From a virus (lineage: Duplodnaviria; Heunggongvirae; Uroviricota; Caudoviricetes): a stretch of 46,229 nucleotides of DNA. Positions 33,708 to 40,457 of this stretch are shown one piece after another. The translations under genes were made by a program, and so were the position numbers. Under the pieces are notes generated by a model, which worked only from the letters and a program-made list of their open reading frames with translations, had not been told where the DNA came from and did not search any database. Where the stretch lies: IMG/VR virus record IMGVR_UViG_3300027908_000001, positions 151,167-197,395 of that record; one strand, 5' to 3'. The stretch's first letter is position 1, and every line of letters starts with the position of its first letter.

Positions 33708-34319
33708 TCAGTATGTCCTCAACACCGGCCGCGTATCGTAGTACACGTTCCGTTTCTTCCCGGTCTCGATGAACTCGGAGGCCACCAGCGCCGCGTTGGC
33801 CGTGAGTCCCATGATGAAGCTGCGGGCGCGCGGCAACTGACAGACATCGATGGCGGCGTCGCTGGCGTGCTCCTTCATCGGCGTGAACACGGCATCCCAG
33901 ACCGCCTCGCCGGTCAACTGGCCGGAGAACCCGACGTGGAGGACAGAGCATCCCTTGCACAGGTCGATGAATAAATTCCGGCTCCGCGCATTGTCGAACG
34001 CATCTATCAAGACCGCGGTTTCGTCATAACCGGGTCCGTGGATGATGTCGTACAAGTTGCCTGATACAAGAATGCGCTTGTTGACCGCCTCAATCCGTTT
34101 CCCGAACTGCTGCTGGATAATGCGCTGGATGGCCTGCACTTTCGGTCGGCCCACATCAGCCTTGGTGTACGGCTGCGTACCGGCCTGATAGTTGCGCGGC
34201 TCGACCACGTCGCTGTCGACGCAGGTGTAACTCAGGTCCGGGTACGTGGCGACCAGATTCAGGAACACGTTGCTCCCGGCGGCTCCGACTCCAAAGATGA
34301 TGACGTGGTCGATGGTCAT
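33708..34319 (-). CDS. ThiF/E1-like adenylyltransferase
   Basis: GVGAAG; D.DVVEPRN; DVGRPKV; DAFDN..SR; candidate catalytic Cys in IDVCQLP. Confidence 0.88.
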   Translation of the reverse strand: MTIDHVIIFGVGAAGSNVFLNLVATYPDLSYTCVDSDVVEPRNYQAGTQPYTKADVGRPKVQAIQRIIQQQFGKRIEAVNKRILVSGNLYDIIHGPGYDETAVLIDAFDNARSRNLFIDLCKGCSVLHVGFSGQLTGEAVWDAVFTPMKEHASDAAIDVCQLPRARSFIMGLTANAALVASEFIETGKKRNVYYDTRPVLRTY

Positions 34320-34549
34320 CGCAAGCTCTTTGGATATTCGCCGGTGACCACCATCCGCGCGATGGACATTCTCCATTCCTCGTTGATGTCGGCGGATTGC
34401 AGTCCCCACATCGTGGCGATACTGGCCTCTTCGTGGCCTTCTCGGAACGCGCGCTCAATCAAGGTGCAAACAACATCCGCTGGCATATTGTCGGTAACGA
34501 CGATGTTTTTGGTGAGCGGCGCTTTGAATTCCAAGTCAGCGTGTTGCAT
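34316..34549 (-). CDS. hypothetical protein
   Basis: Coupled to the E1 gene; promoter directly upstream. Confidence 0.6.
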   Translation of the reverse strand: MQHADLEFKAPLTKNIVVTDNMPADVVCTLIERAFREGHEEASIATMWGLQSADINEEWRMSIARMVVTGEYPKSLR

Positions 34550-34556
34550 GCCGCGC

Positions 34557-34586
34557 ACGGTATCGCGATTCGCGCAGTGTTGTCAA
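34557..34586 (-). promoter_or_regulatory. promoter with operator (34564-34574), drives the E1 unit
   Basis: TTGACA-18-TACCGT. Confidence 0.7.
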
Positions 34587-34589
34587 CGG

Positions 34590-34625
34590 AAAAAGAAAGA
34601 GCCGGGCGATTGTTCCCGGCTCTCT
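34590..34625 (-). terminator. intrinsic terminator of the fMet/Y-like RNA operon
   Basis: AGAGCCGGG/CCCGGCTCT hairpin followed by TTCTTTTT. Confidence 0.8.
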
Positions 34626-34630
34626 CGAAA

Positions 34631-34767
34631 TGAATTAGCAGTCGAATATGAAACGAGTTTTACCGTTGCAGCAGCGGGATTTGACTCCCGCAACCTTTGG
34701 ATTAGTATTCCAATGCTCTACCATTGAGCTATGTTGCGTGTACCTCGATTCGGGTGGCGACCGCTAA
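34631..34767 (-). ncRNA. Y-RNA-like RNA 3: tRNA cloverleaf enclosed by a long terminal stem
   Basis: 5' TTAGCGGTCG pairs with 3' CGACTGCTAA; D, anticodon and T arms inside; no CCA. Confidence 0.7.
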
Positions 34768-34769
34768 AT

Positions 34770-34899
34770 TGGCGGCCCGTGGTACGTGTCAAGTACCAAC
34801 TGCGAGTTCCGATTACTCGTGCTTGTAAATGATGTTCATGAGGCGACCGATTGCTCAGTCGAAGGCGAACCCATTGTGTTGACTTTTAGCTTACGGGCC
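34770..34899 (-). ncRNA. tRNA-like RNA 2 (Y-RNA-like candidate)
   Basis: Acceptor GGCCCGT/ACGGGCC, T arm, GCCA end, helix TTCGACTGA-GCAA-TCGGTCGCC. Confidence 0.65.
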
Positions 34900-38129: not shown

Positions 38130-38158
38130 ATCCTTGGCTCCTTGGTGCCGCGAATCTC

Positions 38159-38572
38159 TCACTTCAATGATGCGATGTCAAACACTATTCCACGACAATA
38201 CGGTTTTCCGTCCTCGACAATCTCGAAGTTGTCGTGTGGTATGGCCGTCTTATACGTCCACGAGTAATCGCCTTCCTTGCACCACAGCGCTTCAATCTTC
38301 TTGGCCTTCTTCTTGGCCTCGGCGAACCCGCACCACTTGCATTCGCAATCCTCGTGCCCTTCCAGCGGACCTTCCGCCGTGACAAACACGTCTCCACCAT
38401 CGTTCGGGGGATAGCATTCATCGTTGATAGCGCCCTCGAACTCCATGAGGTCATCCGATGCGCCGTACACGACCACCAGTCCGGCAGCCTTGGCCTCGGC
38501 AATTTCGGCCTTGGTCATCTCGAATGGATACTCGCGGCCAGTAAGTTTTGCGGCAAGCTGTTCTTTATTCAT
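38159..38572 (-). CDS. conserved phage hypothetical protein
   Basis: GLVVVYGASDDLMEFEGA..YCRGIVF. Confidence 0.8.
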   Translation of the reverse strand: MNKEQLAAKLTGREYPFEMTKAEIAEAKAAGLVVVYGASDDLMEFEGAINDECYPPNDGGDVFVTAEGPLEGHEDCECKWCGFAEAKKKAKKIEALWCKEGDYSWTYKTAIPHDNFEIVEDGKPYCRGIVFDIASLK

Positions 38573-38573
38573 A

Positions 38574-38858
38574 TTATTTCCACCATGTCACGATTACACC
38601 ACCGGTTACATACTGCCCGGAAGCCTTCATGGACGTACCTCCAGCGGTGAAACGAACCATCCATTCGCAAGGCACGCCCATTTCTTGGAAAGATATTTTG
38701 GCAACCTTCCCCCACCCGAGCGTTTTGCCCAGTTCTTTCAAGGCAGCTTCGACTGTCCTGCCTACAGCGTAAATCTCCAGCACAAAGCTGCGGCGAAAAT
38801 CATCTTGTTTTCGCTTCTGGAATCGCCTGCCCATGATGTCGTAGACCTTGTCGCTCAC
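38574..38858 (-). CDS. hypothetical protein
   Basis: GTG start, GGAGG RBS. Confidence 0.6.
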   Translation of the reverse strand: MSDKVYDIMGRRFQKRKQDDFRRSFVLEIYAVGRTVEAALKELGKTLGWGKVAKISFQEMGVPCEWMVRFTAGGTSMKASGQYVTGGVIVTWWK

Positions 38859-39406
38859 TGTAGCGCCTCCACGTACTTGGCGATGCGGTCGTAGTCGTGG
38901 CCGAATCGCTGGCAGAACTCCTGCGGCGGCATGTCGCCTTTGTTCTTGTTGTCGCGCTTGCACATGGTCACGTAATTACTGACATCGTTCTTGCCGCCCT
39001 CCGCGAGCGGGAGCCAGTGGTCGACGCTAAGCTGCACGTCGGGGAGTCCCTTTCCGCAGCAAATGCACTTGAAGCCTTCCCGGTGCCATACGCGCTGTTG
39101 CGTGAACCCGGAAATCTCATGGCGCAACTTGCGATGGAGAATCTTGTTGATGCCGCCAGCTTCGCCGACAAACAGTTGCGGGTCGTCGGACGCGCGGATA
39201 ATATCGCCCCATTCTGATACGGTCGGCTGGACCTGACGGAAGTGACCTTCAAACTTCTCGCCGCTCGGGCTGAGCATCACCACGGTCGCGCCCATCCCCT
39301 GAAAGACGACGCCCGCGATTTTGAGGGTGTTCCCCAAATCTTCGAGTATCACCGGTCGACCCGGACTGGCCGGGTAAGCCGAGGGAAGATAGTGCCGGTC
39401 AGCCAC
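38855..39406 (-). CDS. HNH endonuclease-domain protein
   Basis: REGFKCICCG..SVDHWLP..GG.N...NYVTMC...N..K. Confidence 0.8.
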   Translation of the reverse strand: MADRHYLPSAYPASPGRPVILEDLGNTLKIAGVVFQGMGATVVMLSPSGEKFEGHFRQVQPTVSEWGDIIRASDDPQLFVGEAGGINKILHRKLRHEISGFTQQRVWHREGFKCICCGKGLPDVQLSVDHWLPLAEGGKNDVSNYVTMCKRDNKNKGDMPPQEFCQRFGHDYDRIAKYVEALQ

Positions 39407-40001
39407 GGTCGAATGCCTCCTGTAATCGTTCCGTAGCCGCCGCCATTTGACCGGCGTGACTGACGTTGAAGTGAAATACCTGCGGATGGTCTTTGAACGC
39501 ATCCATGTTGTACGGACGGGTAGGCATGATAACCCATCCGCGCGGCCTCCATTTGAGCCATTGCTTGCAGTACGGTGGATAATCATCCACCAGCACGGTG
39601 CCGTACACGAGACCTTTACGCATTGTCACGGTCACATCAAACGGCTCTTCCAGATGCTCATGGCACCATTGCAGCTTTTCGCCCCACGCGCTAAATGTGC
39701 GGCGCGGCCCCTTAGTGAGGATATGAATCTTGAAGCCAATCCGCCGCGCATTATGTAGCAATGCCATGCCATCATCGAGCACGGCTAACTTCGACCAGAA
39801 ACCCGGTGAGCCCTTGATGACATCCATCCGTGCCTCGATGTAATCTGGCAACTCCTTCGATTGCGCCCACTCGGTTTCGATGTCCACTACCGGTCCGACG
39901 GGAGCGCGCAATGAATCCAACGCCTTGGCCATCGCGCCGGAGTAATTGGCGAGTGTGCCATCCAAATCGAATAGGGCGATTTTGTCTGGCTGGGCGGACA
40001 T
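39399..40001 (-). CDS. HAD-family 5'(3')-nucleotidase (NT5C-like)
   Basis: LFDLDGT; ILTK; EK..W; LVDD; RPYN. Confidence 0.85.
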   Translation of the reverse strand: MSAQPDKIALFDLDGTLANYSGAMAKALDSLRAPVGPVVDIETEWAQSKELPDYIEARMDVIKGSPGFWSKLAVLDDGMALLHNARRIGFKIHILTKGPRRTFSAWGEKLQWCHEHLEEPFDVTVTMRKGLVYGTVLVDDYPPYCKQWLKWRPRGWVIMPTRPYNMDAFKDHPQVFHFNVSHAGQMAAATERLQEAFDRG

Positions 40002-40396
40002 CACGGCAAACCCTGCTGGTCGAATTCAAGTTGGCGCACGCGCTGTTCCAAATCCTCGATGCGCTGCAACAGTTCGGCATTGGTCGGACACGGGAGCGAA
40101 CCAGCAGTCGTCTTCGGACCAATCATTAAGTTCCCGTTGTCCACCATCTTCCGCATCTGGTAGGACACGTCACCGTCCGGGTCGGACAGATTCACTTCGG
40201 GCAGGTTCTGCGACTGACGGCTCTCGTTCACCGCGCCTTGGATGGCTTCAATCGCCTCTTCCTCGGTTGAATCCATGGTCAGCCCGTAGGTCGTCATGGG
40301 ATATTGGTAGTCATGTCCCTCGACAGTTACAAATACAAGGCCGTGCGCGTTCTCATCGACTGGTGCGGCGGCTCTGCGGGTAGTAGTTCTTGCCAT
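40001..40396 (-). CDS. putative ubiquitin-like (beta-grasp) protein with C-terminal propeptide
   Basis: VFVTVEG.DY..helix..YQMRK..GNLMIGPKTTAG (Gly99), then a 32-aa tail; first gene of the vWA/JAB operon. Confidence 0.6.
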   Translation of the reverse strand: MARTTTRRAAAPVDENAHGLVFVTVEGHDYQYPMTTYGLTMDSTEEEAIEAIQGAVNESRQSQNLPEVNLSDPDGDVSYQMRKMVDNGNLMIGPKTTAGSLPCPTNAELLQRIEDLEQRVRQLEFDQQGLP

Positions 40397-40428
40397 AATG
40401 TTTTTCTCACTCCTCTTTGGTGTGCGGC

Positions 40429-40457
40429 AGTAAACCATCTATCGCGATTCACGTCAA
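40429..40457 (-). promoter_or_regulatory. promoter with operator (40443-40453), drives the Ubl/vWA/JAB operon
   Basis: TTGACG-17-TTTACT. Confidence 0.7.

Follow-up and report, generated by a model that had tools for sequence, protein, structure and literature searches.

A phage gene cassette that joins components of a proposed ubiquitin-like pathway to a Ro60-type protein and tRNA-like RNAs

Why would a tailed phage encode a ubiquitin-like protein (Ubl), a ThiF-type E1 enzyme and a JAB/JAMM metallopeptidase side by side with a Ro60-type protein and a group of tRNA-like RNAs? The question is raised by a cassette at positions 33,708 to 40,457 of a 46,229-nucleotide stretch of DNA (the window), which forms the final 46 kb of the 197,395-bp virus record IMGVR_UViG_3300027908_000001 of IMG/VR. 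The record carries direct terminal repeats and is rated 100% complete by CheckV. A preliminary description of the window had listed a small Ubl-like protein, a HAD nucleotidase, an HNH endonuclease, a protein with a von Willebrand factor A (vWA) domain, a JAB peptidase, a protein with an AGFCTSG motif (the Cys protein), an RNA operon and a ThiF protein. All of these are present on the minus strand, with coordinates at or near those first proposed. Positions below are those of the window, and features lie on its minus strand unless noted.

The answer that we favor, at a probability of roughly 0.55, is that the cassette encodes a Ubl conjugation pathway in which the Ubl is matured by the JAB peptidase and activated by the E1, and which works with a phage Ro60 ribonucleoprotein (RNP). 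Systems of each kind have been known before; new here is that a Ubl/E1/JAB system is joined to a Ro60 RNP.

A Ro60-type protein in a conserved set of genes

The largest protein of the cassette is encoded by an open reading frame (ORF) of 550 amino acids (aa) at 36510-38162, which probably starts at M12 (38129). Its AlphaFold2 (AF2) model, built on 27 homologues, has a mean predicted local distance difference test score (pLDDT) of 80.6 and shows a TROVE-like helical ring followed by a C-terminal vWA domain. When the model was searched with Foldseek, Ro60/TROVE entries ranked first at E values of 2e-8 to 1e-5 (PDB 9kop, 9l5y, 2nvo, 1yvr and 9nen among them), and the top structures included a TROVE-domain crystal, the Ro60 of the Thermus phage phiLo, Deinococcus Rsr and the Xenopus and human Ro60 proteins. 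With VIA, 414-431 residues were aligned at Z 13-14 to Ro60/TROVE entries only, and matches other than Ro60 span merely the vWA domain of about 160 residues. The DVSGS motif of the metal ion-dependent adhesion site (MIDAS) is intact, and D365, S367 and S369 are invariant in the 27 homologues. Sequence models gave nothing comparable, as no Pfam (TROVE included), NCBIfam or PHROGs family was matched at the thresholds used and no Ro60 emerged when the PDB sequences were searched with a profile. Judged by its predicted structure, the 550-aa protein belongs to Ro60 at the level of the fold, without a match to the sequence models, and the Ro-like fold that had been suspected for the vWA protein is borne out along its whole length.

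A word-index search returned 165 homologues of this Ro protein at 40-58% identity, all of them unannotated and none with a Pfam domain, which sit on metagenomic contigs of up to 507 kb. Among 185,579 species genomes the family is all but absent: a search with the Ro alignment found three short contigs of metagenome-assembled genomes only. Megablast of the 8-kb cassette region found no DNA-level match among GenBank phages, and tblastn of Ro against the same phages returned just two distant records at 24% identity. A single Ro protein used as the query against viral contigs confirmed no related locus; a search with an alignment of the Cys protein yielded six relatives, which are IMG/VR viral contigs of 14-253 kb.

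The conservation of the gene set was determined by searching hidden Markov models of five families (Ubl, Ro, JAB, Cys protein and ThiF) over the ORFs of 19 loci. All five occur together in the window and in ten related loci of viral or metagenomic origin (L001, L002/L003, L004, L005, L008, L010, L011, L013, L015 and L019), usually with tRNA-like RNAs inside the cassette, and the association proposed from a single genome in the preliminary description is in this way found across the family. In L015, the most divergent locus, the five genes form a contiguous block of 3.4 kb. Loci L007, L009, L012, L014 and L017 are either truncated at contig ends or present as small pieces.

It might be thought that these genes are chance neighbors in a tRNA-rich hypervariable region and share no function. 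The cassette of the window is interrupted by the HAD and HNH genes and by a gene for a 137-aa protein, and JAB and the Cys protein do not come in the same order in all loci, as such a reading would have it. Against this stands the recurrence of the five families in the window and ten loci whose Ro proteins are only ~40-58% identical, with fusions between family members and the compact block of L015. Since synteny and gene fusions already contradict a chance arrangement, we regard it as very improbable.

Genes for RNA repair and for the rescue of translation flank the cassette in relatives. Found there were an RNA ligase (PF09414), an HD/AAA_33 kinase-like protein, a Tpt1-type RNA 2'-phosphotransferase and a tmRNA, at L002 7217-8263 and at L005 4646-5743, 16581-17111 and 17145-17491. 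No RNA ligase or RtcB was found in the genome of the phage studied here. Two sigma-70-like genes lie upstream of the cassette of L019.

The putative ubiquitin-like protein and its candidate enzymes

The small protein at the head of the cassette is encoded by an ORF of 145 aa at 40001-40438, and its likely start is M15 (ATG at 40396), which follows AAAGAGGAG. The Ubl-like domain, assigned by family homology, occupies 40100-40396 and ends at an invariant glycine (codon 40102-40100) in the sequence PKTTAG. The remaining 32-aa tail with the stop codon (40001-40099) is a predicted pro-peptide for removal by JAB. Residues 35-113 of the ORF match a gene of 76-127 aa which, in most relatives (11 related loci), immediately precedes Ro, and the domain is also homologous to the N-terminal domain of proteins in which Ubl and Ro are fused.

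All 13 members of this family carry a P-x4-G end with an invariant glycine, which is the last residue in seven and is followed by one residue in three and by three residues in one; in the other two, the glycine is followed by the 32-aa tail in the window, which is absent from the relatives, and by the whole of Ro in L005. When the listed Ro homologues were searched with a profile, 12 of 121 representatives proved to be in-frame Ubl-Ro fusions. One of these, P0050 (L019 8001-10142, 713 aa), which is encoded on a phage contig, has two tandem Ubl repeats, each ending in PKPVAG, ahead of Ro, and the repeat was confirmed on the DNA of L019; the other 11 are single Ubl-Ro fusions.

In polyubiquitin and ubiquitin-fusion precursors each unit ends in a glycine that is exposed by a peptidase. 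The tandem and fused Ubl pattern resembles theirs, and a peptidase able to cleave behind the glycine would be required. The likeness extends to the eukaryotic precursors in which ubiquitin units lie head to tail or ubiquitin precedes a ribosomal protein, that is, an RNA-binding protein. It is an analogy only, as there is no detectable sequence relationship and the processing enzyme here would be the adjacent JAMM peptidase. Taken together, the C-terminal glycine, the variable extensions, the Ro fusions and the tandem repeat support the view, first put forward in the preliminary description, that the small protein resembles a Ubl precursor in its behavior.

A different use of the small protein can be considered at this point, namely that it serves Ro as a non-covalent subunit for RNA binding or assembly, as a TGS-like beta-grasp or another small domain, and is never activated. 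ThiF and JAB would then act on another substrate, ThiF for example as an ATP-dependent RNA base modifier of the TcdA type or as a peptide adenylase, and some ThiF-family enzymes do act on tRNA or on peptides (TcdA/CsdL and MccB). That the Ubl domain is part of the Ro polypeptide in about 10% of the family representatives fits this idea, as does L006, where Ubl and Ro occur without the other genes nearby. However, the free forms of the Ubl end at the invariant glycine or 1-3 residues past it, which makes C-terminal chemistry hard to avoid. The tandem repeat of P0050 implies that Ubl units are released and thus also counts against a fixed subunit, and the tight five-gene block of L015 argues for a single pathway. 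Such a non-covalent role is unlikely in our judgment.

The candidate processing enzyme is the JAB/JAMM metallopeptidase at 35952-36413. It has the exact sequence HTHPHGVERMSSTD, which conforms to the zinc site HxHx7Sx2D, and the site is present in 13 of 14 family members. The Pfam Prok-JAB model gave 17 bits against a cut-off of 25 and covered the motif region only. The ThiF/MoeB-type adenylating enzyme at 33708-34409 is more readily recognized (PF00899, 6.1e-12, 45.6 bits against a cut-off of 28.1). It is a short E1, as its probable start at M31 (34319) leaves 203 aa, and the relatives are also ~200 aa long. The motifs GxGxxG, DxDxVxxRN and DAFDN and the cysteine in DVC are conserved in 10-11 relatives. 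In particular, DxFDN is kept in 10 of 11 ThiF proteins, the ATP-binding and Mg motifs are kept in nearly all 11, and the cysteine in DVC/DIC, kept in 10 of 11, is a candidate for a catalytic role. The identities first assigned to JAB and ThiF rest on catalytic motifs that are kept across the relatives. The best curated NCBIfam families for ThiF are ThiF, MoeB and the archaeal SAMP-activating UbaA, all below the equivalog cut-offs, and PADLOC gave weak E1-E2 matches only. For the cassette proteins as a whole, PADLOC and NCBIfam returned nothing besides ThiF-type matches.

The fifth member of the set is the 251-aa Cys protein at 35200-35955, which carries the AGFCTSG motif and founds a new family with an invariant cysteine, Cys219, in EAGFCxSGxD. 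An exhaustive profile search found 424 representatives at E<=1e-3, almost all of 240-300 aa; two further candidates, P0238 and P0250, were rejected as long cadherin/Ig repeat proteins with bias matches. In 50 diverse members, with identities as low as 16%, G217 and C219 never vary, and the conservation of W196, D224, P146 and E147 is 90% or higher. The AF2 model (pLDDT 87.4) combines OB-like barrels at the N-terminus, a helical hairpin and a C-terminal alpha/beta domain with Cys219. It has beta barrels in residues 1-115, helices in 117-177 (including a helix at 146-177) and a C-terminal part with a four-strand meander at 181-215, the Cys loop and a helix at 231-242. The order of helix, meander, Cys loop and helix fits that of a UBC/RWD core. 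Structural comparison of the N-terminal part gave matches to RNA-type OB folds for residues 61-115 (Z 5-6.7; the cold-shock domains of RNase II/RNase R, S17, IF1/eIF1A and eIF5A) and to the double-OB domain of Mpa for residues 1-116 (Z 6.3-6.5). Residues 166-244 weakly match the DRWD of FANCL (Z 5.1), and low-probability RWD rows (Ctf19/Mcm21) were returned for the C-terminal domain. In the Atlas fold search no row had a TM above 0.37, and searches of the protein atlas with the Cys protein and with the Ubl gave no usable match. These models are compatible with an E2-like role of the Cys protein.

From this set of parts we infer JAB cleavage, adenylation, possibly a thioester, and transfer to a target, in the following order. 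The Ubl would be made as a precursor, with a 32-aa tail in this phage and, in relatives, with 0-3 extra residues or as Ubl-Ro or di-Ubl-Ro. JAB would cut after the invariant glycine of the P-x4-G end, and the short ThiF-type E1 would adenylate this glycine and may hold the Ubl on the conserved cysteine of DVC. The Ubl could then pass to Cys219 of the 251-aa protein as an E2-like carrier, and the OB-type barrels at the N-terminus of this protein would direct it to RNA or to the RNP. The Ubl would finally land on Ro60, on proteins recruited to the particle of Ro and tRNA-like RNA, or on clients of the particle, and the outcome would be tuned RNA quality control or protection of tRNAs during infection.

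Several observations weigh against this pathway. The Ubl has no detectable similarity to Pfam or NCBIfam families, PDB sequences or any known Ubl in sequence searches, and the sole hint of its fold is a crude propensity profile of beta-beta-alpha-beta-beta. The Cys protein lacks the HPN motif and matches no Pfam or NCBIfam family and no E2 of PADLOC, its model has no PDB match at E<=0.001 in Foldseek, and its C-terminal domain also yields weak Foldseek matches that are like the double-stranded RNA-binding domain. For the E2 equivalent envisaged in the preliminary description, the invariant cysteine and a UBC/RWD-like order of elements were found, and a significant match to UBC was not. In one relative only, L006 (Ubl and Ro at 9608-11635), no JAB, Cys protein or ThiF lies within 10 kb downstream, which hints at use of the Ubl independently of an E1 or at a dispersed cassette. 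Neither an E3 nor a target can be named, and the combination of E1, JAB and Ubl is equally typical of sulfur-carrier pathways. As for L006 itself, a CTP_transf_like gene and unrelated ORFs follow its Ro gene. A predicted complex of ThiF, Ubl residues 30-113 and the Cys protein scored 0.00 and is uninformative either way.

The main rival is accordingly a sulfur-carrier pathway, in which the Ubl acts like ThiS, MoaD, CysO or TtuB. ThiF would adenylate the glycine, the invariant cysteine of the 251-aa protein would bring a persulfide so that the Ubl becomes a thiocarboxylate, and the sulfur would thiolate phage tRNAs, the tRNA-like RNAs or RNA bound to Ro; JAB would trim the precursor or recycle adducts, as Mec+ does for CysO. 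The cassette resembles ThiS-ThiF, MoaD-MoeB, CysO-Mec+-MoeZ and TtuB-TtuC, which also combine a short ThiF/MoeB-like E1 with a small protein ending in glycine and a JAB partner, and known operons join Ubl, E1 and JAB (PMC1779556). The E1 of the cassette is a short, single-domain protein whose best families are ThiF, MoeB and UbaA, the cassette holds tRNA-like RNAs and is surrounded by over 32 tRNA genes, and OB-like barrels of the RNA type occur in the Cys protein together with one invariant cysteine. In contrast, PP-loop thiolases of the TtuA/TilS or MnmA families are missing from the complete 197-kb genome, the five-gene set includes no PP-loop thiolase, rhodanese or cysteine desulfurase, and no thiolase, rhodanese or desulfurase was found in either the cassette or the phage genome. 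The Ubl family ends in xAG or xFG (AG in this cassette) and not in GG, and the tandem repeats and Ubl-Ro fusions are closer to ubiquitin precursors. A sulfur carrier is thus a possibility to be taken seriously but on balance a doubtful one.

tRNA-like RNAs inside the cassette

The preliminary description had placed a nested operon of tRNA-like RNAs between the Cys protein gene and ThiF. This RNA region (~35150-34595, ~0.55 kb) folds with a z-score of -4.9, and the operon is supported by tRNA matches of 54 and 28 bits and by a terminator hairpin. Four units can be distinguished. Unit 0 (35022-35098) matches the Rfam tRNA model at 28.1 bits, just below the gathering score; it has a CAU anticodon loop, an atypical D arm and a ..GACCA end, and was missed by ARAGORN. 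RNA1 (34905-35016, 112 nt), delimited by its ViennaRNA fold and motif positions, has an acceptor-like closing stem, a long arm with the hairpin CGACUG-loop-CGGUCG and a CCA end followed by AUUU. In the ViennaRNA fold of RNA2 (34770-34899, 130 nt), a 7-bp acceptor stem (GGCCCGU/ACGGGCC) is followed by GCCA, a T-arm-like hairpin is present, and the long arm bears a second CGACUG/CGGUCG hairpin. RNA3 (34634-34768) matches the tRNA model at 54.1 bits and was also uncalled by ARAGORN. In this unit a 10-bp helix, UUAGCGGUCG/CGACUGCUAA, which is the same duplex as in the hairpins of RNA1 and RNA2, closes around a cloverleaf at 34738-34666 with the anticodon ACU, two mismatches in the acceptor and a T loop of 8 nt. 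The operon ends in an intrinsic terminator-like hairpin at 34595-34626 with a 12-bp stem and a T run, which is the region's sole minus-strand hairpin of this type with a long G+C-rich stem.

RNAs of this kind are also found in the relatives. In the window and in L001, L004, L005, L008, L010 and L019, the interval from the Cys protein to ThiF holds tRNA or tRNA-like genes; in L002 and L015 such genes come immediately behind ThiF. Long tRNA-like RNAs of 125-137 nt, with an insertion of 55-65 nt at the position of the variable arm, occur in the gap between the Cys protein and ThiF in L004, L005, L008 and L010 and elsewhere in L013, and those in L001 and L019 are tRNAs of ordinary length. The long tRNA-like RNAs of four relatives end in CCA. 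The extra arms gave no usable MAFFT/RNAalifold alignment. A shared GGUC/GAC(U) duplex resembling a Ro-binding stem was considered for them and rejected, as L005 and L008 have a comparable feature and L004, L010 and L013 lack it.

Are these RNAs Y RNAs? The bacterial YrlA RNAs have been defined by the layout T / acceptor-loop / D and by a Ro-binding stem, GNCGAAN0-1G (PMC4201824). Neither was found here, since the cloverleaf of RNA3 is unpermuted and RNA1 and RNA2 are closed by their acceptor stems. When positions 34400-35210 were compared with Rfam at E<=5, tRNA was the sole family matched, and for this reason nothing Y-RNA-like was found.

The CCA ends bring up two further readings. In the first, ThiF would form the acyl-adenylate of the Ubl, and this would be passed to the 3' CCA of the tRNA-like RNAs or to the ends of Ro-bound RNA, giving RNA-linked Ubl by a chemistry like aminoacylation, with RNA as the carrier or target and Ro as the scaffold. 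Acyl-adenylate chemistry is common to E1 enzymes and aminoacyl-tRNA synthetases, and Ro60 binds the 3' ends of RNA (cf. the titles of PDB 2i91 and 9nep). A CCA end that is encoded and precedes AUU/AUC is present in at least three units of the operon, and the CCA ends of the four relatives point the same way. Such RNA tagging is without precedent, however, and a protein with an invariant cysteine suits a thioester relay better; we consider such tagging quite improbable.

The second is wider and would make the cassette an RNA-coupled Ubl system, with Ro60 and the CCA-ending tRNA-like RNAs as scaffold or acceptor, an option that we find unlikely. The Ubl would be loaded on the Cys protein or on an RNA 3' end and would tag Ro-bound RNAs, or the proteins on these RNAs, during infection. 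If true, this would be protein-RNA conjugation or RNP-guided tagging without a characterized counterpart.

Genome setting and relation to known systems

Promoter-like sites were read from the sequence ahead of the small protein and ahead of the RNA operon. The first, TTGACG-17-TTTACT (40429-40457), lies upstream of the small protein, and its spacer holds the 10-mer GAATCGCGAT, which occurs as two exact copies only in the 46-kb window (40450-40441 and 34571-34562). Each copy is located just downstream of a TTGAC(G/A) hexamer; the second, with its TTGACA hexamer at 34586-34581, is upstream of ThiF (34562-34586). The distances from hexamer to GAATCGCGAT differ, and for that reason the proposal that both are the same operator is no more than plausible. 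The site ahead of the RNA operon, TTGACT-17-TATAGG (35151-35179), was not among the reports of a consensus promoter scan.

Three genes of the locus fall outside the conserved set. These encode a 5'(3')-deoxyribonucleotidase (NT5C) of the HAD family (39399-40004; PF06941, 5.9e-10), an HNH endonuclease (38855-39400; HNH_5 PF14279, 1.8e-11, residues 174-228), whose true start is downstream of the ORF start at 39586, and the 137-aa protein (38159-38572; phrog_25176 of PHROGs, 7.1e-29), to which no function is assigned and which has no Pfam or NCBIfam family. The 137-aa protein has a CxCxxC-like motif and is directly upstream of Ro in this phage only. None of the three has a counterpart at this position in related cassettes, where the Ubl gene is directly upstream of Ro, and they were thus ruled out as cassette members. 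The early view of HAD and HNH as parts of the unit did not hold up; by gene order, the three genes are inserts specific to this phage, and the HNH gene is probably a mobile insert.

The wider window is rich in tRNA genes, with 32 on the minus strand by ARAGORN, to which Rfam adds more tRNA matches and a short RNA that resembles RNase P RNA. The tRNA matches at 27608-27681, 28320-28391, 34666-34738 and 45068-45137 (minus strand, 27-54 bits) were uncalled by ARAGORN, and there are therefore several aberrant tRNA-like genes beyond the 32 annotated. The RNase P class A match (42264-42491, minus strand, 228 nt, model positions 1-367, 50.4 bits, E 4.7e-13) is under the gathering score of 100 and looks like a much-shortened phage RNase P RNA amid the tRNA genes. 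Apart from these, a sigma-factor-like ORF (13060-14376, minus strand; phrog_351, 3e-60) shares an overlap with the 5' end of a transposase-like ORF on the opposite strand (14217-15413, plus strand; phrog_506, 5e-27).

How does the cassette compare with characterized systems? It shares with Ro60/Rsr particles the whole architecture of a TROVE ring and a vWA domain with MIDAS, and with the Ro60/YrlA pairs the presence of tRNA-like non-coding RNAs encoded beside the Ro gene. YrlA is reported to accompany Ro60 in over 250 bacteria and phages (PMC4201824), Ro/TROVE proteins are known in some jumbo phages (PMC7824862), and the structure of the Ro60 of the Thermus phage phiLo has been determined (PMC12135203). 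The Ro protein of the cassette differs in being too divergent for Pfam TROVE, and the RNAs differ in that their parts do not follow the sequence T / acceptor-loop / D. The partners of Ro in known loci are PNPase, RtcB or RNA repair, and not Ubl, E1, JAB and a Cys protein. Literature searches found no paper that joins Ro60 to the E1/JAB/Ubl set, although a 2016 NAR survey of RNA repair might mention it, and no Ubl-Ro fusions are reported in searchable papers.

On the side of the Ubl, the bacterial Bil (BilABCD), Bub and type II CBASS Cap2/Cap3 pathways (PMC11601596, PMC10557695 and PMC10097602) are the nearest likeness, as they have a Ubl with a C-terminal glycine, a ThiF-type E1 and a JAB that matures the precursor. 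In Bub, a JAB-E1 protein cuts a Ubl-E2 fusion (PMC11601596). These are host anti-phage systems, whereas the cassette is phage-encoded. It also has no recognizable UBC E2, its Ubl is fused to Ro60 and not to an E2 or a CD-NTase, and tRNA-like RNAs lie inside it.

What the cassette may mean for phage biology follows from this comparison. To our knowledge, Ubl conjugation in prokaryotes has so far been described as a means by which hosts fight phages, and bacterial Ro60 as a particle for RNA quality control with an obscure regulation. The cassette would join Ubl conjugation and Ro60 on the phage side, and the link is a genetic one that includes a polyubiquitin-like di-Ubl-Ro protein. With it comes a large unannotated family with a single invariant cysteine. 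The finding is general and not a one-off, since hundreds of family members are found in metagenomic phage-like contigs. It offers a handle on the purpose of the vWA/MIDAS domain of Ro60 and of the tRNA-like Y RNAs, and an E2-like fold or an acceptor chemistry not seen before may come to light through it.

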